NCBI GenBank assembly: GCA_019973935.1
Contig: BMAU01016994.1
Coordinates: 944,762-1,008,761, forward strand
DNA length: 64,000 bases
Origin: Trichonephila clavipes
Lineage: Eukaryota
Direction of reading: 5' to 3'
The number at the start of each line of letters is the position of its first letter. The first letter of the stretch is position 1. The notes below the pieces were generated by a model. It saw only the letters and a list, made by a program, of their open reading frames with translations. It was not told the origin of the DNA and searched no databases. A program made the translations under genes and the position numbers. Below, piece after piece: positions 1,381 to 64,000 of this stretch.

Positions 1381-2050
1381 AACTGAAGAAGGTTGTAAAA
1401 CAGCTTGTAATTTTCTATGAGACAAAAATTGTTTTAACCTATAATTATATCATATAGGAGCTAATCTCTGACTGCAATGTAATGGTATTAATAATAAATC
1501 ATTATTATTGTTGTTACTAAAATCAATAACTGTATGAATCACAAAACTTGAATTTTACTTTGCATATGCAGCACAGAATAAGTCTAATTGTCATACATCA
1601 CTTTGACACTATTGGTACTGCAATTCATGGTTAGCTGTTCTGTGATTAAGGTTTAATTTTTTTGATAAGTATGTAATTATCTTTTTATGGATCATGTCTA
1701 AGAAAAAGGATTTAAATTAATTATTTATATAGTTTCATTTTTAAAATTGGTCTTTTGAATAAAATAACGTAGTATATATATACATATACATTACATACAT
1801 TCAATAAATGCATACTAATCACTTGAATTAATGAAATTATATACTGATGTATAAAACAACACTTTGTTATAAGCAGATTTCAGTCTTTATTAGTATATGT
1901 ATTTTTATGTTACTAATAATTTTTGAATTGTGCGTTAATTGAAGATATTTAATTAACATAGTAACTCTTTTATAAATCAATACAAATTATTGTATTTTAA
2001 AAATATGAAGTAGCCAACGAGCTGATTCTTTGGGGGTGACAAAAAAAAAG
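1381..2050 (+). repeat. Dispersed repeat copy 1 with an A-rich tail, unclassified, possibly a SINE-like retroposon
   Basis: 1400-1620 aligns by eye with 8925-9130 (gagacaaaa..gttttaacct..ctactaaaatcaat..cttgaatttt). The tail at 1990-2050 (atatgaag..gctgatt..tttggg then poly-A) matches 9131-9195. Copy 1 carries about 370 bp of extra internal sequence. Confidence 0.6.
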
Positions 2051-2262
2051 AAAAAAAAATTCTTTGGGAGGAGTAGAAATTACTTTCAAATTTAAAGGAA
2101 ACACATCAACAGCTAAAATGCACAAGTTTTTTCTTGCATAATGTACGATGAGCAATAACAGTCTTTGAACAGTGAAGAAGGTCAAGCAGTCGTAAAAGCA
2201 CAAATTGGGCTTCTTCCCCCCACCTCCCCCTCAGGGGGCTCACCTTCTTTAGGTGAGTACAG

Positions 2263-2371
2263 GTTTCACGCTCCCGAGGTGCCCTAGTGATCTTTTCCTT
2301 CTCCCTAGGGGTTTACTGTCTTTGGTAAACACGGGCTTCACGAACCCGGGGAACCCTAGTGATCCTTCTCT
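2263..2371 (+). repeat. Tandem monomers in the LINE 5' UTR
   Basis: Two units share ttcacg..ccc(g)gg..ccctagtgatc(c)tt(t)tc, at 2263-2304 and 2334-2371. Confidence 0.5.
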
Positions 2372-3316
2372 ATTTTCGGCCCTTTTTCTTGCCATTCCAA
2401 TTTCCCTTTACTTCTTTTCACGTCCAGACCACAGACCCACATTGGACAATGAAATTTGTTCCAACTTTATTTTTTTCTGGTAAAAAATTTAATATTTTTT
2501 ACTACCGTATAATGGTTTATATTTTATATTACGTTCTTTTCATTTGATTTTCTTACATTTCTTTCAATATTTTGATTTTGTTGCTACTTTTATGTTTGAT
2601 TATTGATTTTGTTATTTTATTTGTGTTCAATTGACAATGCTTTTCTTTACTTATTATCTTTTCTTTTTCTGCCACGAAGTCCTGTGGCAGACCAGGACTG
2701 AGTGGAATGAAGTTGTGTCTGATGGGTTTTCACTATTGGTATGATGACACAACGGACTGCTCCCTGGGAAACCTGGCACTGGGAGCGGGGTTTTGAACTT
2801 TTGAAGACCTTTGGACTGGTGAGGTGGGGTCTTGGAGGAAGCGGCCATGTAGAGGGTACAGGAGAAAAGCTGAGTTTTGCGTCTCAGGCCGCCAGATAGT
2901 ACAGGAGCCCAGGGCAGCCTAACCAGCATGTCCTGGCTGCTCTATCAGCTGGTGTATAATCCCGCCTGTCTTGTAGTTCCAGGTGATGCCTGGATGGGGT
3001 CCTGCATTGCAGAGCGGGGGGCTCTCCCGAGGCCACTACTGGTTGCTGAATCTAGGGCTAGCCCTGCCAAACTAGTCCTCTGAAAATCATAAGGGATTCT
3101 CCTCCTTTCTCAAAAAAAAAAAAATTCAAAATAAATCCAAATAAGGAAAAAACTCAAAACGCATCTATTAAAACCCCCATCCCACCCTATCCAACTCACG
3201 ATGCTCGGCCCATGGATTCTTTGAATTCATGCCCGGGATTACCCAACCTTATTGACAACATTGCTAAATGTTCAAGCTTTTTAATTTTATCAGTACCAAA
3301 CTGCGAAATGGCATGA

Positions 3317-4597
3317 AAATCTTCTTTTGTTATCCACAAAGCTATAATAGGAATAGGTGGAGAACCGAAATCTATTAAAAAACTACGATCTGGTGACTTG
3401 CTAATCGAGACTACATCTGCATTACAAAGTAAATCTTTTTTGTTGGCTAAAACCTTTTTAGATTTTCCGTTAACCGTAACTCCTCACAAATCATTGAATT
3501 TATGTCGAGGTGTCATCTCCGAACCAGATCTTTTGTCTTCCTCTGAAGCAGAAATCTTGGAAGGACTTTCTGACCAGGGTGTTACCCAGGTCAGAAGAAT
3601 TTCAGTAAAAAAAGACTCATCCCTTTTTCCCACTAAAAATTTAATTCTAACTTTCAATAGCCCTAAATTACCATCAAACATTAAAGCTGGATACTTAAAT
3701 TGCAAAGTACGTCCATATATACCGAATCCTCTGCGCTGTTTTAAGTGCCAGAGGTTCGGACACTCACAAACTTCCTGCCGCGGTCAACTTACTTGCTCTA
3801 GATGTGCATCTGTTGGACATGCTTCCACAGATTGCAGTCTAGAGCCTAAATGTATTAATTACTTACAACCTCATCCATCAGACTCCAAATTATGCCCTAA
3901 ATGGAAAATAGAGAAACAAATACAGGAAATAAAAACAACTCAAAATATTTCTTACCCAGAAGCACGTAAATTAATAGTCCCACAGTTACCTCAAACCTAC
4001 GCTCAAGCTACCAAATCCTCTACTTTAAATAATTCTACCCAAACAGATGAAAATATAACTAAAATAAACTGTCCACCTTTAAAATTACTTGCACCACTAT
4101 CATCCAAACAAAGAACAAATATTCCTACTGCTATTGCCACATCATCCTCTGCCCAAACGCAACTGTTACCTTCCATTTCTTCAAAGAAATCTACTATATC
4201 AAATCCCCAGCCACCAACTCCCATGTCTAAGACAAAAGGGAAAATTAAAGAGCAACCATCTCAATTACATTGTCCCCGAAAAGATAACATAAAAATAGAC
4301 TTAATGTGCATAAAACCTACATCCAATTTAAAGAAAAATCCTGAAAAAAACTCATCCATAAAGATTGCGAGGGAACAAGATTCCCCCAATGAAATATCTC
4401 CCGTCTCCAAAAAATCTTGCAGACGGAAAACTTTTAAAACCTCGGATGCCATGGACACAGACGCTAATCCTTCTGACACGGATTACGTCACAGGTCTGGC
4501 ATCCAAAGAAGATGAGAGCCTTTTAGAGGCTGATTTTAAACAAGTGGCAGAAAATCCCTTAAAAGGGCCCCTTTCGCCAAGTTCGCCCAAAAAATAA
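3317..4597 (+). CDS. LINE ORF1, gag-like nucleic-acid-binding protein with CCHC zinc knuckles; no in-frame ATG, so the 5' end may be frameshifted
   Basis: The ORF track lists 3398-4597. The frame is open back to 3317 after a TGA at 3314-3316. It contains the motifs KKLRSGDLLIE, CFKCQRFGHSQTSC and CSRCASVGHASTDC. The track start codon is a TTG, not an ATG. Confidence 0.8.
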   Translation, partial: KSSFVIHKAIIGIGGEPKSIKKLRSGDLLIETTSALQSKSFLLAKTFLDFPLTVTPHKSLNLCRGVISEPDLLSSSEAEILEGLSDQGVTQVRRISVKKDSSLFPTKNLILTFNSPKLPSNIKAGYLNCKVRPYIPNPLRCFKCQRFGHSQTSCRGQLTCSRCASVGHASTDCSLEPKCINYLQPHPSDSKLCPKWKIEKQIQEIKTTQNISYPEARKLIVPQLPQTYAQATKSSTLNNSTQTDENITKINCPPLKLLAPLSSKQRTNIPTAIATSSSAQTQLLPSISSKKSTISNPQPPTPMSKTKGKIKEQPSQLHCPRKDNIKIDLMCIKPTSNLKKNPEKNSSIKIAREQDSPNEISPVSKKSCRRKTFKTSDAMDTDANPSDTDYVTGLASKEDESLLEADFKQVAENPLKGPLSPSSPKK

Positions 4598-4746
4598 CTT
4601 CCCTGGTTTCTTGGAACTGTCGTGGCTATAGATCGCATACAGATGACGTAAAACACATCGTACGTCAGTACCATCCAGTATGCGTAGCACTTCAAGAGAC
4701 TTTCCTGAAGTCTTGTCACACTACAAAGATACGTCGGTATGGTTGT

Positions 4747-7700
4747 GTGCGGAAAGACACGGAGGAACCCTCTGTGTCCGGAGGCGTATGTATTTTTACA
4801 TCCCTCGATGTTCCATCTAGTGCTCTGCCGCTCCGTACCTCGTTACAGGCTGTAGCTGTGAGAATCCACTCCACGAGCCTAATCACAATCTGCTGTCTTT
4901 ACTTGCCACCAAATACTGTTATCCACCAACATGACTTGAACAACCTGGTTGATCAGTTGCCAACACCCTTTATCATACTTGGTGACTTCAATGGACATAG
5001 CACTCTGTGGGGTAGTACGAAGACGAACCCTCGTGGCAGACAGATTGAACAGGTGCTTTCTGATCACTGTCTCTGTCTGCTTAATCACGAGGAACCAACG
5101 TACTTTCACAAACCAACACGATCCTTTCACACATTAGATTTGGCCATCTGCTCACCATCACTCTTACCTCATTTAAATTTGTCAGTTGAGAAGGGCCTCT
5201 ATAATAGTGACCACTTCCCTGTTATCCTTTCTCACGATTCTGATCCGGGTGGAAAAACCTTCCCACCTACGTATTCTTATAGTCGTGCAGACTGGGCCCT
5301 TTTCACGCAGTTGACTATAACTGATGCAATGGTCAAGACAGACAGTGTTGATACTGCTGTACAAGAAGTCACCAATGTTTTGATTGCTGCTGCTGATTTC
5401 TCAATACCAAAGAGTTCAGGTCATTCATTCCAACATTACAAACCTTGGTGGAATGCTGATTGTCAGACAGCATATAAGAACCAGCGGAAGTTATGGGGAA
5501 TCTTTCGCAGATATCCCACTACGGAGAATCTCTTCGGGTTCAAAAAGGCAAAAGCAAATGCTCGCAGAGTAAGGCGTCGGAGTCGGAGGCAATCATGGAT
5601 TCGATATGTGTCCTCACTCAACTCGTCAACGTCCAGTAAACAATTATGGAAAAAGGTCAAGGCAGCAAACGGGATATATTGGGAATTTTCCTTTCCTATT
5701 TTACAAACATCAGACTCTGTCTTTTCTTCCCCAGACGAAATAGCTAATATTCTGGGTGAAACTTTTCAGAGTGTATCGAGTGCAGCCTCTTATAATTCTC
5801 GTTTTCTCGAGATTAAGAGGCAATCAGAGCGTACCCCGATTAATTTTTCCACTCGTTCCTTTTTTCCATATAACTGTGATTTTACGATTACTGAGTTACA
5901 AAAGGCACTCACTCAAGCGCACAATACAAGCCCTGGATCGGATGGAATCACATACGCGATGCTCCGTCATCTACATCCAAACTCTCTGGCCAACATTCTT
6001 TTTTTATTCAACAGAGTTTGGAAGGAGCATTGCTTTCCCTCCAGCTGGAGGGAGGCCATTGTGATTCCAATCCTTAAGCTGGGCAAGGTGGCAACAGATC
6101 CTCTGAGTTACCGTCCCATTGCTCTGACGAGCTGCTTCTGTAAGACCTTTGAACGTATGGTTAATACTCGATTGGTATATGTTTTAGAGAAAGAAAAGTG
6201 TATTTCTCCTCTGCAGAGTGGATTCCGCAAGGGCCGATCCACTCTTGATAACCTCGTATTCCTAGAGTTGCAAATCAGGGATGCCTTTGTTAGGAGAAAC
6301 CACTTGGTTTCCCTTTTCTTTGATATAGAAAAGGCATACGACCGAACTTGGCGTTATGGGATTCTCCGTAATATGTATGATTTTGGCCTAAGGGGAAATC
6401 TTCCTATTTTTATTTTTAACTTTTTAGCTGTTCGTTATTTTAATGTATGCATTGGTCACTCATCTTCTCATAAATTCATTCAAGATCAAGGTGTTCCTCA
6501 GGGTAGCATTTTGAGCGTTACCCTTTTTAATATTCATATGAGTAACATACTTCATCAACTTCGACCTTCAGTATGAGGAATGCTTTATGTTGACGATCTG
6601 CAGGTCTCTTGTCAAGGTTCAGATATGCGACTAATTGAGCGACAGCTGCAAACAACTGTCAATCGATTAGTTCAGTGGTGCGATCAGAATGGACACACGA
6701 TATCTCCATCCAAGAGCAGCTGTGTCCATTTTTGCAGGAAACGTAATCTACACCCAGATCCTTCTATTCATATAGGACATATTCAAATACCTGTCGTCAG
6801 TGCGGTGCGCTTCCTCGGAGTAATCTTTGACTGCAAATTGACTTTCCTTCTGCATGTCCTTTACTTGCGGAAGAGGTGTGAACGATCCCTCAACATCTTA
6901 AAGGTACTATCAAATACCTTATGGGGAGCGGATAGAGTCTCGTTACTCCGAGTGTACCAAGCACTAATACTTTCACGTTTGGACTATGGTTGTGTAGTGT
7001 ACGGTTCTGCTCGTGCGTCTGTCTTAAAACAATTGGACACAATACATCATTCTGCTCTAAGAATCTGCTCTGGTGCCTTCAGAACTTCACCTGTTACCAG
7101 CTTGTATGTGGTATGCCACCAACCACCTTTAGAACTAAGGCGGAGGCAATTATGTGCCAATTATTTTATTTGTGCTATGTCTGTTCCTTCTCATCCATTA
7201 AAACCCTTTGCTCTTGCCATTGGTCTCAACCGACTCTATGAGGCCCGTTCATTTAACATCAAACCTTTTTCGAAAAGAGCAAAGGCTGTTCTAAATGACG
7301 CCCACTTAAATAACATAAATATCCAGGAAAATAATATCCTTGCATTTCCACCCTGGGACATCCAAATTTTTAACTATCACAACCCCTTTTCGGGCTATGA
7401 CAAAGCAGGCACTGCCGATGTTATTTATCAGCAACTCTTTTCTTTTCATCGCAGTAAGTATTCTAAGTACATACCCGTCTTCACGGACGGGTCGAAGACT
7501 GCAGGACATGTTGGGTGTGGTGTTGTTTTTAAGAATACCATTTTAAGTTTTAGCTTACATAATTCCATGTCTGTCTTTAGTGCAGAATTAACTGCCATTC
7601 TTATCGCACTTCAACATATATTAATTTCCAACCACTGTCGTTTTTGTGTGTACACGGATAGCATGAGTGCTCTAGAATCCTTGCATTTTTTTAACAGAAC

Positions 7701-7764
7701 GCCGACACCCCACTGTGATCGAAATACTTCTTCTTCTGCAAAAATTGGAAAGGAAGGGTTTTGA
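4747..7764 (+). pseudogene. LINE ORF2 (endonuclease, reverse transcriptase, RNase H), interrupted by one in-frame TGA at 6574-6576 and frameshifted after 7764
   Basis: ORFs 4747-6576 and 6580-7764 are in the same frame (both coordinates are 1 mod 3). They are separated only by TGA followed by GGA, and the junction reads ..LRPSV*GMLYVDDLQ. The downstream frames still encode SWVPGHVGILGNEQAD and WQETWD motifs, so the C-terminus is frameshifted. Confidence 0.85.
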
Positions 7765-8440
7765 TATAATTTTTTCCTGGGTACCTGGACACGTGGGTAT
7801 ACTTGGTAATGAACAGGCTGATATACTGCTGCACGATCAATGTCTGATCACATGCAGCGGCCTGTCTGTTGCCAGGATTTAAAAACTTCTGCACAGAACT
7901 ATATCCATCGTGTATGGCAAGAGACTTGGGATCAAAACAGGTCCTCAACAAACTGCATAGCATTCATCCTTCCACTTCTCATTGGGCAGCACTACCAGTG
8001 CGAAGACACGATGTCCACTTGACTTGACTTCGCATTGGTCACACTCGTTTCACGCACAGGCACCTTCTGTTGGGTGAAAATGCCCCAGAATGTCCCTCGT
8101 GCAAAGTCCCATATTCAGTCTATCATATTTTAATAGATTGTCCCGTTTTTAACCATCATCGCGTCACCTTCTTTCATACATCTGTTTTAACCTTATCTGA
8201 CTTGGTGGGGAATCCCCCCACCGAAAACTTTTTGCCTTCCTTTTAAAGATTGGATTTTTACATTTAATTTAATTTGTATGTTTCTTTGTATTTTTAATAT
8301 ATTTTTATGTATGTATGCATGCATATATGTGTACATATATACTTTTAAACATATATATTTTTAAAATTATACAGCTTTTATTTTAACAAGTGTTTGGTGC
8401 AGCTTGGCCAAATTTGGCCCTTGCGCCACTAAACTTCACA

Positions 8441-8462
8441 TTCACTTCACTTCACTTCACTT
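8441..8462 (+). repeat. (TTCAC)n 3' terminal microsatellite of the LINE
   Basis: ttcacttcacttcacttcacttc sits immediately before the 3' copy of the TSD. Confidence 0.8.
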
Positions 8463-8924
8463 CCCCCACCTCCATTGTGGAAAACCAAGAGGGAGACACC
8501 AGATACTTTTTTTGTCCTCAGTTACTTCCCTAACCAGTTTATGTCGTCTAAAATCTAATTCTTAGTACACAGTTTTGTCGTATTTTCATAAATACCAGAA
8601 ATAATAACATAAATTTATAAAATAAGAAATGGAAATGTGGTTAAAAAAGATTATACCAATTTTATGAAAAAGTGCTCTAATGACCATTTTCACAGAAAAA
8701 TTACGTTTTCTTTTTAAAGATTTGTACTGAAACTTATTATGTTCTTGATGAGAGTTTCTTATAAGGCAATTCAGAAATTGAAATTTAAGTACAATTTATT
8801 TTTACCATCTACATTTTCTTAAACAGGATACCACATAATGTAGCTTATTTTCTGAGCTGTTATTGGTTACCTAACACACACACATGCGCAAAAATTAAAC
8901 AATATGTTTGAAATGAATTTGGAA

Positions 8925-15955: not shown

Positions 15956-15960
15956 TTTGG

Positions 15961-16355
15961 GCCGTGGGTAGCCTAGTGGTTAGAGCATCGGACTCCAGAC
16001 CGGAAGGCCTGGGTTCGATGCTCGATGTCACCAAATACCCTCCGAGTGCACACGGAGTACGTGCTCATTAAATCAGTGGGTCCGTAGTCTTGTGGGCTTA
16101 TTCACTAGCGCAGGAACTGGAGAATATTTCCCTCCCCTTCAGTTCACTTGCAGAAATTGTGGAGGTGGAGATAGAGGTCGTGTCGCCATCTATCGTCCCT
16201 TCGGGGAAGTTTCTCTGAGCTTAAATCGCACTGTCACCTGTATGGTGCTCAAGGCCAACGACAGGCGTACCTCTTGCCCATGCCACGATGAATTTCAAGG
16301 GCCTCGTTCTGACTACGTCAGACAGGTGGCATTAGTCACAACACAACAACAACAA
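15961..16355 (+). mobile_element. tRNA-derived SINE, copy 1 (tRNA-like head, ~300 bp body, (CAA)n tail)
   Basis: The head is gccgtgggtagcctagtggttagagcatcggactccagaccggaaggcctgggttcgatgc, with A-box and B-box-like motifs. The tail is acaacacaacaacaacaa. It is about 90% identical by eye to 26031-26416. Confidence 0.85.
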
Positions 16356-25851: not shown

Positions 25852-26030
25852 GTAAGTAGAGATCAACAGCCTTTGTTTGTATTAAAAAAGATACTTCAGA
25901 ATTTTTTTCATTTTCAGTGAGAAATGCTTTGAGATGTAAGAATTTTGAACAAATCTTGTATAACATTTACTGAAATTTGAAAATGTTTAACTGCAGAATT
26001 TAAGATATACTTGTTTAAGTTATTTATAAG

Positions 26031-26416
26031 GCCGTGGGTAGCCTAGTGGTTAGAGCATCGGACTCCAGACCGGAAGGCCTGGGTTCGATGCTCGATGTCA
26101 CCAAATACCCTCCGAGTGCACACAGATACGTGCTCGGCAAATCAGTGGGTCCGTAGTCTTGTGGGCTTATTCACTAGCGCAGGAACTGAGAATATTTCCT
26201 CCCCTTCAGTTCACTTGCAGAAATTGTGGAGGTGGGAGATGGAGGTCGTGCCATCTCCATCGTCCCTTCGGGAGTTCCTCACCGAGCTTAAATCGCACTG
26301 TCACCTGTATGGTGCTCAAGGCCAACGACAGGCGCACCTCTTGCCCATGCCACGACTTCGTGGGCCTCGTTCTGACGACGTCAGACAGGTGGCATTAGCC
26401 ACAACAACAACAACAA
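26031..26416 (+). mobile_element. tRNA-derived SINE, copy 2 (same family as 15961), in an MVP intron, with an 11-12 bp TSD
   Basis: It has the same head and body as copy 1 and a (CAA)n tail at 26401-26416. It is flanked by gttatttataa(g/t) at 26019-26030 and 26417-26428. Confidence 0.9.
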
Positions 26417-41150: not shown

Positions 41151-43843
41151 CAGTGGCACACACAAGGGCAGAGCAACCCCCCCTCATCACCCTTGAATTT
41201 TTTCTTTTGGTTGATTATAATAATTCTATGCATATAGAATATAAAATTTAATGAAGTATTTGTTATTAATTAATTATTTATTTTATTAACCATTTGACGG
41301 TTAGGGAAATTAGCAGTTTTTGTTTACTTAATTCACACAGGTTAGTAAGCAGTAGTGGAAAGTGGCAGCTGTTTTCCCCTGCCATTCTTTTGAAAATGTC
41401 ACCCTTCTCCGGCGATGCCATAGATAGCTCGCCTCACGCGTTTTAAAGATTTCTTAAAGTATTTGTAGTACACAAATAACAGTTTTTACGTACTTTAAAA
41501 TAATTAATAAATGATAATTATTAAATAGTAAATTATAAATGATTATAATCAATTATATAAATAATAATAGTTAATTATAAATATAAGACAAATATTAAAT
41601 TGAAAGGACTAAACAAAAACAACTAATGTAAAACTTTATGAAGCATTTAAATATAGTAATTACCTAAAAAATCTTTTAGTGTGTGATATACTTTAAAACA
41701 TGGAATTGCACATAATGGGGCATTACAGTCTTTGCAATAAGTACGTGTTTCACAGCGAATTCTTTTTCCATTGGCATCATTTTTGCTGCAACATACCACA
41801 CATCGTCTAGTAGGTCCTTTCTTTTTTTCTGTAGGTGGAATATAATCAAGAAAGTGGCGTGCTGACAATCTTAAAGTATTCGAAACTATTTCAGCAGGTT
41901 TTAATTTCAAATGCCTGCTTGTGATATTTTTCAACAATTCTTTCAGCTAGTTCAATTCTGAATTCCAAATTTGATTTTTTTATTCCCTTTTTTTTTCCAC
42001 AGCTGAAAAGCATTAAAAATTATGTCCAATAAATAACCAAATATTTTCTTGTAATATTTCCTTTGACGAGATCGAGTTAGGTCATAGTATCCAATTTGCT
42101 GATCCATGCGATCTACACCACCCATCATATTATTATAATCTGAAACGATCTTAAGCTTCTCTATTTCCGCATTTTTCAATTTATTTGGGACTTTTACGAT
42201 TTCAGGATTATGAATTGAGCTTATAGAATAAATATATTTTTTTATCTCTCCATTGCATGGTTGATGGTCTTACCTCTTTGATAGGCAAGTAAGTCTCCCT
42301 TTTTAAGCTTTTCTGTTTTCAGCTCCTTTGTTAGATCTTTTCTGTTAGGTCATAATGTTCCAAAAAAATTAGTTTTAGATTTTTCCTAACTCGGGAGAGT
42401 TGTAGTAATTATCCATAGTAAGGCAGTATCCTTTGTTTAATAGCAACTGAGACAATGTCAAAACTACCTGAGTAGAAAATGAACATTCTTTATTTTCTTC
42501 AGATACATCTGTACCTTTACTGACATAAATTATAATAGACCACACATATCCACTATGAGATTCACATAACATAAACATTTTGATACCGAATCTGACCCTT
42601 TTAAGTGGTAAGTATTAGGTCCAAGAAAGCCTCCCTTTATACAGCAATAGACTTTCATCAATACATATGTCTTGTTCGGGTGTATAAACTTCAGAAAAAT
42701 TTTTCTGTAAGTAATTTAAAGCAATGCATATCTTTTTTTTAGTTTTGGCTGAGGATGAGAAGAATCAGTGTTTTCATTCCTATCAAAATGAATAAATTGC
42801 ATAATACGGTCAAACCTTCTCAAACTCATGAGGTTAGAAAAACTAGGAGTTTCAATTAACTTTCTTTTTGACCAAAACATTCTTACAGTTGGTTTTGTAA
42901 TTATTCCTTTCAAGATTAATGTTGCAAAAAATACTCTCAATTCATTCGCATTCGTTTCACTCCAATGATGAATTCGAAAATGTTCTTTGCTCTTAAATTT
43001 ATTTAAATTTTCAGCAACAAAAATGTTGGTTTCAGTAACAATATAATTTACAATCTCATGAGTAAAAAATAGCTCGAGGTACTCTAGTGGATCAGAAATA
43101 TTTGTCACACAAGCTTTCATGCCCACATCAGCAGTAAAACTAAATCAGCTAGGAGCATGAGAACTTGAATCAATTTTACACTACTGTCGAACACTTGAAA
43201 AATCTTCCTCATTGCTTGAATCGTCTTCTAAGCTTGATATGCTGTGAACAAAGTCTTCATCAGACTCAAAACTTCATAAGCTTTTTGTATCGAAATCAAA
43301 ATCATCATCATAATAATCTAATTTTCACTTTTGAGCCATTGTACTTTACAAACACCCTAAAAACATGTCAAAATAGGCATAAAAAACAAGGTTAAAAAAA
43401 TCCCCCTTCATTATGAAAAGAAACTCATGGAACCCGTACTGCCATCTGTAGACAGTAAAACTAACTAAATTTCGCGAGTAGGATTCGTTTGTAACATAAT
43501 TAATGCAGAATAATAAATTCGAACAAAGCAAACTCGTCAGCGTGATTTGGGGAGTTTTACAACACAAGTAGTACTCGTTTCTAACCATTTGGGTCGAAAT
43601 CTTGCTCCCGAGCTGAACTCGTTTTCGCGCATTCTGAAGCACGATTTGATTGTGAACTGAACTCGTTCATAACCATCAAAGGGTTAATTAATACTAATTA
43701 TTTATTAAATAATTTGTTTTTAATGTTTTTTTCCTGACTAAATCAAAAGAATATGTTTGACAATTTATTGGGCTACAATATAAGAATGATAAACTTGCGA
43801 CCCTCAACCCCTCCTCTTGAAAAATTCCTGTTTGCACCACTGG
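41151..43843 (-). mobile_element. piggyBac-like DNA transposon; the transposase is a pseudogene split across at least four ORF fragments. It lies in an MVP intron.
   Basis: The minus-strand ORFs are 42716-43126 (..RIHHWSETNANELRVFFATLILKGI..FWSKRK..MSLRRFDRIMQFIHF), 42375-42578 (..SGYVWSIIIY..VVLTLSQLLLNKGYCLTMDNYYNS), 41952-42179 (..NNMMGGVDRMDQQIGYY..RKYYKKIF) and 41647-41937, which is the C-terminal Cys-rich domain (CVVCCSKN..RIRCETRTYCKDCNAPLC). The terminal 150 and 70 bp are shared with the MITE at 9790-10080. Confidence 0.8.
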
Positions 43844-56289: not shown

Positions 56290-57033
56290 TAACAAAAAAC
56301 AGTAGTATAATGGTTAGTATAATGGTTAATACGGAGTATGTCTCCCGGACGATGCAATACAGGCCTTACAACGCCTAGGCATGCTGAGTATCAAATTATC
56401 AATCTGATCTTGGGGAATATTACACCACTCATCAAGCAATGCCCTCCGAAGTTCTGGTAGACAGGTGGGAGGGGGTTGACGGGCTGCAATTCGTCGGCCA
56501 AGCATACCCTACACATGCTCTAGTGGATTCAAGTCCGGTGAGTATGCTGGCTAATCCATACGGGTGATATCCTCCGATTGAAGGCATTCGTCTACAATGT
56601 TTGTACGGTGAGGACGGGCGTTGTCATCCATAAACAGAAATTCAGCAGCCATGGCGCCCCGAAACAAACGTACATGTTGTTCCAGAATGACATCCCGATA
56701 GATGTGGTCTGCCATCGTTACACTCTGAAGATGCAGGTCAGTTCTGGAACCAAGAATAATTCCTCCCCAAACGAGCCAACCTGTACCACCGTAACGGTGT
56801 CGTTCAATTGTGTTCTCTTGGTGGTAACGGGTACCTGGCGCTCTCCATATTAAAGTCCGGCGAGAATCAGACTGCAAACAAAACCTGGACTCTTCGGAAA
56901 ACATCACACAAGACCACTGTTGTGGTGTCCACAATACATGCTCTCTACTCCAGATTAATTGGAGGTGACAGTGAGTTGTGGTAAGTGGAACACATCTGAC
57001 AGGCCTACGAGTATATAGACCAGTGCTTCTCAA
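56290..57033 (-). pseudogene. Tc1-like transposase (DDE domain through the C-terminus), 5'-truncated
   Basis: The minus-strand ORF 56551-57033 gives ..EHVLWTPQQWSCVMFSEESRFCLQSD..LVWGGI..FMDDNARPHRT.. The C-terminal ..MPRRCKACIASSGRHTPY lies in the adjacent frame at 56290-56550. The expected N-terminal ~100 aa are absent, and a CAGTG MITE end starts at 57033. Confidence 0.75.
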
Positions 57034-62205: not shown

Positions 62206-63410
62206 TCAACGATACCTAGTTGGAAGATGAACTTTGCGACCAGAACGTGTAGATGGCTGGGTAGGCGTTGAAGCTGTTGGATCAGATTCCACAGTAGCAG
62301 GTGTTGAAGCTGTTGCATTAGGTTCCACAGTAGCAGGTGTTTCATTCTTGGTTTGAGGTAGTTGAAAGTCCTCAGTGTTAAGAAAGAAGGCAGGTTTGCA
62401 TCTATCAATAGATACAGATACCCGTTTACCATTGATGTCAAGGAAAAACACTTTATCCTTCCTTTGTAAGACTTTGAAAGGGCCATCATAGGGTTGTTGA
62501 AGTGGACGACGTAACATGTCTCGGCGAAGAAAAACATGTGTTGCTTCCAACAGTCCTGGATGGATAAAAACTGGACGTTTGCCATGGTGTTTTGGTTGTT
62601 TAGGGTGAAGTGATTGCATGTGAGACTTAAGTTTCGAAACAAAATTCACAACATCATCGTCTGGCTTGGAAGAGTCAAACATCTCCCCTGGCAGTCGAAT
62701 AGTGGTCCCAAAAACTAATTCAGCTGGGGTACACAGAATATCTTCTTTAAGAGAAGCTCGTAGACCTAGTAAGATGATAGGGAGTACTTCTGTCCAACGC
62801 TCAGTAGCATGGCATTTGATTGCACTTTTCAATGGGCGGTGCAATTCTTCGATCATCCCATTAGCTTGAGGGTGGTATCCAGTTGTACGACACTTCTGAA
62901 CACCAAGTAGTTTGCTAAGAGCTTTGAAGAGCGAGGACTCAAACTGCCTGCCTCTGTCGGTTGTGAGAATTGCAGGAGTTCCAAAGCGAAACACCCAAGA
63001 GGAAAAAAGAAGGCCTCAGCCACAGTCTCAGCAGTTATGTCTTTGAGAGGTTGGGCCTCTGGCCATTTCGAAAAACGGTCAATCATTGTCAGGCAATAGG
63101 TGTAGCCATTTAATGGAGGTAGAGGTCCAATGAGATCCAGATGAACATGATCAAAACGTTGGGAAGGTTCTTGAAATGATGAAAGAGGTGATCTAGTATG
63201 ACGATGAATTTTGGATTTTTGACAAGCTAGGCAGTGTCTTGCCCACTTAGCTACATCTGATGAGATTGATGGCCAAACAAAATGCTGCTTCATCAAATGC
63301 ACTGATCGACGTATGCCAGGATGGGATAAATTATGCATAGCAGAGAAAACATCTTGGCGATGCTGTTTTGGGATGTAGGGTCTGGCTGTGCCCGTTGATA
63401 GATCACACAT
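62206..63410 (-). pseudogene. LTR-retrotransposon integrase (HHCC zinc finger, DDE core with DRG..YHPQANG, GPF/Y C-terminal motif), split by one frameshift
   Basis: ORF 62853-63410 gives H..H..C..C (HNLSHPGIRRSVHLMKQHFVWPSISSDVAKWARHCLACQKSK) and ..HVHLDLIGPLPP..TMIDRFSKWPEA. ORF 62206-62994 gives ..ILTTDRGRQFES..GYHPQANGMIEELHRPLK..YDGPFKVL. Confidence 0.85.
62267..62338. repeat. 36-bp tandem duplication inside the integrase C-terminus
   Basis: gttgaagctgttg(g/c)at.ag.ttccacagtagcaggt occurs twice in tandem. It encodes the repeated peptide TPATVE..TAS. Confidence 0.8.
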
Positions 63411-63436
63411 AATTTCAGTAGACGAATTGGGAAAAG

Positions 63437-64000
63437 TTACCTTTTGAGTTCCAAGGAAGTTCCAGATGCTATTAGGGTGTGAAGCTCCTGATCAGTCTGT
63501 TGTGTCTCAGCAATACAGTCATAGTCAATTTGACTTGGGAAGGTGATTGCAGAAACACGAGAGAGAACATCAGCAGCAATATTGTCAGATCCTGGAATGT
63601 GTACAATATTTGTGGTGAACTGAGAGATGAAATCCAGCTGACGGATCTGCCGTGGAGAACACTTGTCACTTTTTTGCCTAAAAGCATAAGTGAGGAGCTT
63701 GTGGTCAGTAAACACTGTGAAATCTCTAGCTTCCAGCATATACCGAAAGTGTCGGATAGCCGAGTAGATAGCAAGGAGTTCACGGTCGTAGGCACTGTAA
63801 GACTTTTCAGATGAAGTAAGTTTTCTGGAAAAGAAAGCCAATGGCTGTAACTCAGAGTCCACAACTTGGTGAAGTGCACCTCCTATGGCATAATCAGAGG
63901 CGTCCACATGAAGAGCAAGCGGGGCAGAAGGTGAAGGATGAGCAAGAAGTGCAGCATCAGCAAGAGCTTGTTTACACCTCTGAAATGCTGTAATTGCCTC
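63437..64000 (-). pseudogene. LTR-retrotransposon RNase H / RT C-terminus (Ty3/gypsy or BEL/Pao type), continuing beyond the window end
   Basis: The minus-strand ORF 63437-63907 gives ..DASDYAIGGALHQ..LAFFSRKLTSSEKSYSAYDRELLAIYSAIRHFRYMLEARDFTVFTDHKLLTYAF. The order RT, RNase H, integrase on the minus strand fits these families. Confidence 0.8.

Follow-up and report, generated by a model that had tools for sequence, protein, structure and literature searches.

The 64-kb window, by which we mean the whole stretch of DNA analyzed here, very probably contains, on the forward strand between positions 2228 and 8460, one full-length, inactivated copy of an abundant family of RNase H-carrying LINEs from a nephilid orb-weaver, with an architecture of the I-group type. 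Read from 5′ to 3′, this segment comprises a 5′ UTR of about 984 nt (2228–3211), a gag-like ORF1 (3212–4597), an ORF2 (pol) that overlaps the end of ORF1 (4594–8272), and a 3′ UTR (8273–8460) terminating in a microsatellite-like (TTCAC)5 tail at 8435–8460. The 3′ end of the element carries this (TTCAC)n tail and no poly(A), and self-BLAST revealed neither an LTR nor a TIR. Target site duplications (TSDs) enclose the segment, the left copy, TTCCCCCCACCTCC, occupying 14 nt (2214–2227) and the right copy, TTCCCCCACCTCC, occupying 13 nt (8461–8473). The two match save for one extra C in the left copy, a length difference that sits in a C6/C7 run, and both abut the element precisely, as the original prediction had claimed. 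The succession of AP endonuclease and reverse transcriptase domains, the TSD, the 3′ tail, and the absence of terminal repeats together correspond to an APE-type LINE.

Sibling gene models place both ends of the element independently of the TSD. The peptide PLRGLTFFR, encoded by the conserved 5′ terminus at 2227–2253, is common to three of them (P0007, P0153, and P0169), and because the residues preceding it differ among the three, the 5′ end of the family lies at about 2227/2228. The end of the 3′ UTR (8402–8460) is found again in P0003 and P0011. The 5′ UTR terminus also includes a consensus splice donor, AG|GTGAGT, at 2251–2258, and an imperfect direct repeat occurs at 2249–2295 and 2321–2367. 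Farther downstream, an AT-rich stretch (2440–2668) gives way to a GC-rich block (2669–3122) that is matched by approximately 17 sibling gene-model exons at 77–96% identity and whose predicted fold has z = -3.4. We considered whether this block, which ends in an A-run, is a nested structured RNA or SINE, and rejected this candidate: no Rfam or tRNA match was found in the 5′ UTR, and sibling gene models share the block, which makes it part of the 5′ UTR of the family. An antisense ORF (2654–2929) was likewise rejected as an ORF0-like gene. Its sole support is P0048, whose pieces lie in opposite orientation; P0048 is therefore a chimeric gene model and provides no evidence for the antisense ORF.

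ORF1, examined by translation, alignment to siblings, and Pfam (zf-CCHC) as well as by the structural model described below, encodes in order an RRM fold, a set of three CCHC knuckles, and a tail of low complexity, and it ends at a TAA codon (4595–4597). The original prediction reported the ORF1 start codon to be missing. An ATG is present at 3212–3214, where it opens MDSLNSCPGLPN, giving an N-terminus like that of intact sibling ORF1 proteins. An AlphaFold model of the sibling P0125 adopts a beta-alpha-beta-beta-alpha-beta arrangement at residues 24–92, and the top Foldseek matches of this model in the PDB are all RRM domains, human L1 ORF1p among them. On the basis of this modeled fold, ORF1 is of Type I, with an RRM immediately upstream of the CCHC knuckles. 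Neither a Pfam match to Transposase_22, the L1-type ORF1 with coiled coil, RRM, and CTD, nor a poly(A) tail is present, features that would be expected of an L1 clade member.

ORF2 lies in the -1 frame relative to ORF1 and extends over about 1224 codons to a TAA at 8270–8272, rather than the approximately 1005 codons previously assigned to it; siblings and related proteins are 1225–1226 aa long and end in GFLHLI. It is open in a single frame from 4597 to about 7690, save for a TGA at 6574–6576. Its first domain is an AP-type endonuclease (4606–5214; Pfam Exo_endo_phos, 6.5e-14, and Exo_endo_phos_2, 1.3e-22). Sequence matches of ORF2 in the PDB are L1 ORF2p, R2, and the TRAS1 endonuclease, with the TRAS1 ORF2p domain (1.2e-5) representing the only endonuclease match of the element there. 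The reverse transcriptase domain follows at 6106–6825 (Pfam RVT_1, 7.5e-34), with its YVDD motif just 3′ of the in-frame TGA. An RNase H domain occupies 7471–7840 and is interrupted by two frameshifts, and its Pfam score (RNase_H, 7.6e-14) was accordingly taken on a frameshift-corrected translation, the frames having been compared by tblastn against P0013, P0004, and P0001; all of the D-E-D-H-D residues are readable. The C-terminal region (7841–8272), which contains two further frameshifts, carries a CX2CX7HX4C motif at 8091–8141 as well as a LTRLRIGHTRFTH box broken by a TGA at 8025–8027.

Comparison with siblings reveals the extent of the damage in this copy. The TGA at 6574–6576 is real, as originally predicted, and the proposed check of this position in siblings shows Arg in all 13 copies that cover it, reading PPSVRGMLYVDDL; thus, the stop arose from an ancestral CGA codon by a CpG C-to-T transition. 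The second TGA in ORF2 gives LT*LRIGHT where siblings have LTRLRIGHT. Four frameshifts were located late in ORF2: +1 in the T-run at 7686–7692, +2 (‘AT’) near 7821–7824, +2 in the A-run at 7934–7937, and -1 in the G-run at 8207–8210. Such terminal frameshifts had been noted before, and they prove to affect about 195 codons rather than about 130. Together with the supposed loss of the ORF1 start codon, they had been taken for the only other damage, a view that is contradicted by the additional ORF2 stop and by three lesions in ORF1: an in-frame TGA at 3314–3316 (Arg in 12 of 12 siblings), a one-codon deletion near 3250 relative to siblings, and a Cys-to-Tyr change in the third knuckle at 3860–3862 (Cys in 17 of 17 siblings). 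Disabling lesions therefore number at least seven, comprising three nonsense codons and four frameshifts, to which the lost zinc ligand is added.

The copy has private changes at 9 of 460 ORF1 residues and at 28 of 1027 ORF2 residues, or approximately 2.5% overall, figures that, like the family consensus, derive from protein-level comparison with gene models that are often mis-spliced. Eleven of the private changes are Arg losses of the CpG type, the third TGA included, and the observed/expected ratio of CpG is 0.64 in the element versus 0.54 for the window outside it. By this protein-level measure, the private residues suggest roughly 1% nucleotide decay since insertion. The lesions and the private residues, many of them CpG-type, lead us to regard the copy as dead and moderately young, and not freshly inserted; its earlier description as recently inserted and almost intact is thus overstated.

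A portion of this damage might have been introduced during assembly. Homopolymer runs hold three of the four frameshifts, with indels in T7, A4, and G4 runs, as well as the TSD length difference in its C run, and assembly errors at such sites could exaggerate the damage. If the frameshifts, and perhaps the TSD difference, were long-read homopolymer errors, only the three TGAs would be real and the copy would be far closer to intact. We consider this unlikely, because one of the frameshifts is a 2-nt ‘AT’ insertion that involves no homopolymer change, the change in the A-run amounts to +2 nt, and homopolymer errors cannot account for the three nonsense codons, the codon deletion, the Cys-to-Tyr replacement, or the roughly 35 further private substitutions. 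The copy would be dead in both cases.

The best matches to the element are all T. clavipes gene models, with 83–96% amino-acid identity, compared with about 60% for Araneus. Searches recovered 367 ORF2-like proteins at E ≤ 1e-10 and 1869 ORF1-like proteins at E ≤ 1e-5. Of the sibling gene models for ORF2, 37 reach at least 85% identity, and none of these has a complete, uninterrupted ORF2. In Trichonephila antipodiana, the RepeatMasker category ‘LINE/I’ is the most common non-Penelope LINE class, with 56,156 pieces making up 0.85% of the genome (PMC7976613).

The original prediction placed the element in the I/R1/LOA group on the strength of its RNase H domain and CCHC-bearing gag. Outside the I group, reports of RNase H in LINEs are limited to plant L1, Proto1, and Dualen (PMC4640811), and the presence of this domain supports assignment to the I group (I/LOA/R1/Nimb/Ingi/Tad1/Outcast), an assignment made by domain architecture rather than by RT phylogeny. 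The CCHC-containing ORF1 is compatible with this group, in which a Type I ORF1 with RRM and CCHC knuckles occurs, but it is not diagnostic, given that Type I ORF1 is also found in Jockey, L2, and plant L1 elements (PMC4120745). With regard to R1, the relatives of the element are not labeled as such, no rRNA or other Rfam match was found in the window, and the insertion lies in neither rDNA nor another repeated target of the kind that R1 elements enter sequence-specifically.

Database names would instead suggest a Jockey-clade element. Dozens of T. clavipes siblings with 85–96% amino-acid identity are automatically labeled ‘X-element/jockey’, and almost all named matches bear Jockey-clade labels (‘transposon X-element’, ‘BS’, ‘mobile element jockey’). 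These labels are automatic best-hit transfers, however, and Swiss-Prot includes entries for the Jockey clade and R1 but is not known to include any for I or LOA. The Jockey clade is characterized by the lack of RNase H and by a poly(A) 3′ end, whereas a Pfam RNase_H domain follows the reverse transcriptase in the element and in nearly every full-length relative, and the 3′ end is (TTCAC)n. We therefore judge membership in the Jockey clade to be improbable.

Returning to the insertion itself, the element entered a unique, C-rich 13-mer within AT-rich DNA that precedes exons of the major vault protein, and the flanks predict a pre-insertion site with a single TSD copy, GGGCTTCTTCCCCC(C)ACCTCCATTGTGG. 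The major vault protein exon matched no NCBI spider protein, yielding only fragments of exon size with at most 76% identity, and the host is accordingly placed as Trichonephila or a close relative. It is highly improbable that the flanking 13-mers match by chance and that the segment is instead a segmental duplication or a chimera of several elements. The region 2254–2668, which has no match among sibling gene models and hence lacks support as family sequence, would fit such an origin. Exact-pattern scans of metagenome contigs for the empty site and for sibling 5′ ends gave no match, an outcome that was anticipated and carries no weight for or against it. Against it, the repeats adjoin ends that siblings set independently, and a match of this grade within 20 nt outside each of two random window boundaries arose in only 58 of 200,000 trials (probability approximately 3e-4). 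Moreover, the ORF1, ORF2, and UTR blocks are collinear with those of siblings, and neither a second copy of the element nor a flanking duplication occurs within the 64-kb window.

These results support the original reading of a full-length LINE with a genuine TSD, and its insertion would have proceeded by target-primed reverse transcription. By analogy with established LINE biology, the endonuclease would have nicked the target DNA, the (UUCAC)n end of the RNA would have primed reverse transcription at the nick, and a staggered cut of the second strand would have produced the 13–14 bp duplication. Neutral decay in what may have been methylated DNA could then account for the three Arg CGA-to-TGA changes, several Arg-to-Cys, Trp, or Gln CpG transitions, the lost zinc ligand, and the four small indels. 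With these lesions, neither protein can still be produced from this copy. Recoding of the in-frame TGAs, as selenocysteine or by programmed readthrough, would leave the copy functional and has in its favor that all three stops are TGA, but its probability is negligible and the sibling comparison effectively refutes it: siblings carry Arg at all three sites, as CGA-to-TGA decay predicts, recoding would leave the frameshifts and the missing zinc ligand in place, and no SECIS-like Rfam match was found.

The element is an ordinary copy, and its significance beyond annotation is small. Hundreds of gene models in Trichonephila that are named ‘X-element/jockey/BS’ prove to be decayed copies of a LINE that bears RNase H and resembles the I group, and the exact ends, TSD, and tail now given for one full-length copy could seed a curated consensus. 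The case also documents TE decay, apparently CpG-driven, in a spider genome.

Among known systems, the element most resembles the I group, typified by the Drosophila I factor and including Nimb, LOA/Lian, Outcast, Ingi, Tad1, and R1. Shared features are the two ORFs, an ORF1 with RRM and CCHC knuckles, the ORF2 order of AP endonuclease, reverse transcriptase, RNase H, and Cys-His motif, a short simple-repeat 3′ end in place of poly(A), and a TSD of approximately 10–14 bp. The I factor has a (TAA)n tail and a TSD similar in length to that of the element, whereas the tail unit here is TTCAC, and the two ORFs, separated in the I group, here overlap (AUAA). Jockey-clade elements (jockey, X-element, BS) are likewise arthropod LINEs with a Type I ORF1 and an ORF2 that joins AP endonuclease to reverse transcriptase, and differ in the RNase H and 3′-end features described above. 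Further counterparts are related spider LINE families, represented by P0012 from Araneus ventricosus, P0017 encoded by Logan contig L001, and P0020 from T. clavipes, which show 57–60% identity to the element and share with it an ORF2 of 1225–1226 aa, its domain order, and the C-terminal box.

In these related families, ORF2 opens at the ATG of an ATGA overlap between stop and start, whereas the family of the element has ATAA. ORF2 begins here with an ATA codon within AAAAAATAA, overlapping the ORF1 stop, and ATA occupies this position in all four family copies seen (the element itself, P0059, P0078, and P0170). The junction, CCCAAAAAATAACTT, reads CCC-AAA-AAA-TAA. From these sequences, we raise tentatively the possibility, on balance doubtful, that this LINE family amplified without an AUG codon for ORF2. 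ORF2 could be produced by -1 slippage of P-site tRNA-Lys where the A6 run meets the ORF1 stop, by slippage during transcription from A6 to A7 (P0078 can be read as ORF1 fused in frame to ORF2, SPKK-ITYLVSWNCRG), or by non-AUG reinitiation. Alternatively, the G-to-A change may mark a dead sub-lineage. The ATA start is a minor lead on LINE ORF2 translation. Human L1 ORF2 is translated by AUG-independent reinitiation and Bombyx SART1 ORF2 by UAAUG coupling, both of them unconventional mechanisms that act close to the stop codon of a bicistronic RNA and to which the ATA start described here might be analogous.

Direct reading of window positions 1900-8800 and translation of all frames revealed a single collinear retroelement on the + strand, comprising a 5′ UTR (2228-3211), ORF1 (3212-4597), ORF2 (4594-8272, in the -1 frame) and a 188-nt 3′ UTR that terminates in (TTCAC)5 at 8435-8460. 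ORF2 matches the Pfam families Exo_endo_phos/Exo_endo_phos_2, RVT_1 and RNase_H, with readable signatures of the endonuclease (SWNCRG, LQET, GDFNGH, SDH) and reverse transcriptase (FFDIEKAYD, QGVPQGS, YVDD) and the D-E-D-H-D catalytic residues of RNase H. ORF1 matches zf-CCHC and has three knuckles, of which two follow the pattern CX2CX4HX4C and the other CX2CX3HX6C. Its fold was taken from an AlphaFold model of an intact sibling ORF1 (P0125), of only moderate confidence (pLDDT 70-90 over residues 12-98), which shows a beta-alpha-beta-beta-alpha-beta unit. The top Foldseek matches of this model in the PDB are all RRMs, human L1 ORF1p among them. An RRM fold combined with CCHC knuckles makes ORF1 a 'Type I' ORF1 as previously defined (PMC4120745).

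The element is directly adjoined by the repeats TTCCCCCCACCTCC (2214-2227) and TTCCCCCACCTCC (8461-8473), which differ only by a single C of the C-run. Both boundaries are fixed independently by siblings: the peptide PLRGLTFFR, translated from 2227-2253, is common to three sibling gene models in which the preceding residues all differ, and the translated 3′ UTR terminus is present in two. Among 200,000 random pairs of boundaries within the window, 58 gave a flank match as good as that observed. The sibling-fixed ends and the rarity of a chance match indicate that the element is full length and that the target-site duplication is real, in agreement with the original prediction, which had correctly spotted a LINE insertion at 2228-8460 and its flanking duplication.

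Alignment of the conceptual ORF1 and ORF2 proteins to siblings indicates that the copy is clearly dead, and not almost intact as had been proposed. The in-frame TGA previously noted in ORF2 at 6574-6576, where 13/13 siblings encode Arg, is confirmed, but the inventory of damage was otherwise incomplete. Further TGA codons occur at ORF1 codon 35 (3314-3316; Arg in 12/12 siblings) and in ORF2 at 8025-8027 (Arg in siblings, within LTRLRIGHT); ORF1 also has a one-codon deletion near 3250 and has lost a Cys of its third knuckle (TAC at 3860-3862; Cys in 17/17 siblings). Four frameshifts interrupt ORF2: +1 in the T-run at 7686-7692, +2 ('AT') near 7821-7824, +2 in the A-run at 7934-7937 and -1 in the G-run at 8207-8210. 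Assembly error might account for three of the indels, which fall in homopolymers, but not for the nonsense codons. The ORF1 ATG, reported as missing, is in place at 3212 and gives the family N-terminus MDSLNSCPG. Residues private to this copy relative to the sibling majority number 9/460 in ORF1 and 28/1027 in ORF2, and this level of roughly 2.5% would correspond to about 1% nucleotide decay, taken as an upper bound since subfamily variants that were not sampled would be counted as private too. Eleven private changes, the third TGA included, replace Arg with a stop, Cys, Trp or Gln, which is the signature of CpG deamination; the observed/expected CpG ratio of the element is 0.64, and that of the remainder of the window 0.54. 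The copy thus appears to be moderately young.

ATA (4594-4596) occupies the position that aligns with the ORF2 initiator. In sister families, at least 12 gene models begin MTSF(I/L)SWNCRG, and L001, an intact Logan contig encoding ORF2 of a related spider LINE family (57% identical), has an ATGA stop/start overlap (L001:1261-1270). The junction here, CCCAAAAAATAA at 4586-4600, reads CCC AAA AAA TAA CTT, with an A6 run immediately before the ORF1 stop, and a G->A change retains that stop (TGA->TAA) while eliminating the AUG. From the last upstream stop (4537-4539) to the endonuclease there is no in-frame ATG. Three other family copies whose gene models read through this position (P0059, P0078 and P0170) encode Ile at the same codon, and the P0078 model reads as an in-frame ORF1-ORF2 fusion. 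That ATA represents the family state is only a lead, drawn from four copies compared at the protein level. Were it the master state, ORF2 expression would require a -1 slip within the A6 run at the stop, transcriptional slippage on the A-run, or non-AUG reinitiation.

The first 26 nt of the element are conserved and include AG|GTGAGT, a consensus 5′ splice donor at 2251-2258, 24 nt into the element, from which three sibling gene models (P0007, P0153 and P0169), as gene predictions, splice into ORF1. Further downstream, a GC-rich block (2669-3122; 53%) is matched by many sibling gene-model exons and exceeds shuffled sequences in folding stability (z = -3.4); Rfam and tRNA searches of this block returned no match. 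Short sense ORFs begin within it at 2741 and 2928; an antisense ORF of 91 aa lies at 2654-2929. The stretch 2254-2668, between the conserved terminus and this block, is putative family sequence, as the sibling matches lie on either side of it.

The family is abundant. At E<=1e-10 the ORF2 query retrieved 367 proteins, and at E<=1e-5 the ORF1 query retrieved 1869; for both, the best matches are all Trichonephila clavipes gene models (83-96% identity), with relatives in Araneus ventricosus, Argiope and Stegodyphus at 50-62%. These matches place the host among the nephilid orb-weavers, as T. clavipes or a species close to it. A search of the 64 kb window yielded no further copy.

A major vault protein gene on the same strand has its first recognisable exon approximately 9 kb downstream; its exons span 17632-46268 (+; Pfam Vault_3 and Vault_4). 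These were mapped, at approximately 17632, 18858, 21347, 24006, 25118, 25720, 28093, 31377, 32831, 35739, 39440 and 46173, with a human MVP query suitable only as a probe. The first coding exon was sought but not found, and the exon at 28.1 kb returned no spider MVP protein from NCBI. Two copies of a GC-rich (about 52%) interspersed repeat of ~390 bp, 92% identical, are placed in introns of this gene (15960-16352 and 26030-26416, +) and may represent a SINE-like or other non-autonomous element. The gene region also holds a piggyBac-type transposase fragment (42716-43126, -; DDE_Tnp_1_7, 2.5e-22). A 160-aa ORF at 56551-57033 (-) looks by eye like the C-terminal half of a Tc1/mariner transposase (…FMDDNARPH…), with no Pfam match at E<=1e-3; the tail of P0040, a chimeric LINE-labelled gene model, matches 56554-56661. 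An LTR-retrotransposon pol fragment (62206-63907, -; RT_RNaseH, 4.5e-27; Integrase_H2C2, 1e-16) runs past the window end, and a 36-bp tandem repeat occupies 62263-62341.

Among LINEs, RNase H is documented for the I group, plant L1, Proto1 and Dualen (PMC4640811), and Type I ORF1 is known in I, Jockey, R1, Tad1, plant L1 and L2 (PMC4120745). Taken together, the order AP endonuclease-RT-RNase H, the Type I ORF1, the tail of simple repeats and the target-site duplication of 13 bp fit the I group by architecture, and the I-group architecture of the original assignment stands. The 'X-element/jockey/BS' names attached to siblings are automatic transfers, contradicted by the presence of RNase H and by a tail that is not poly(A). 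Penelope aside, 'LINE/I' is the largest of RepeatMasker's LINE classes in T. antipodiana (56,156 pieces; PMC7976613). The element is an ordinary LINE insertion. Unlike R1 elements, it is not specific to rDNA, and Rfam gave no rRNA match in the window.
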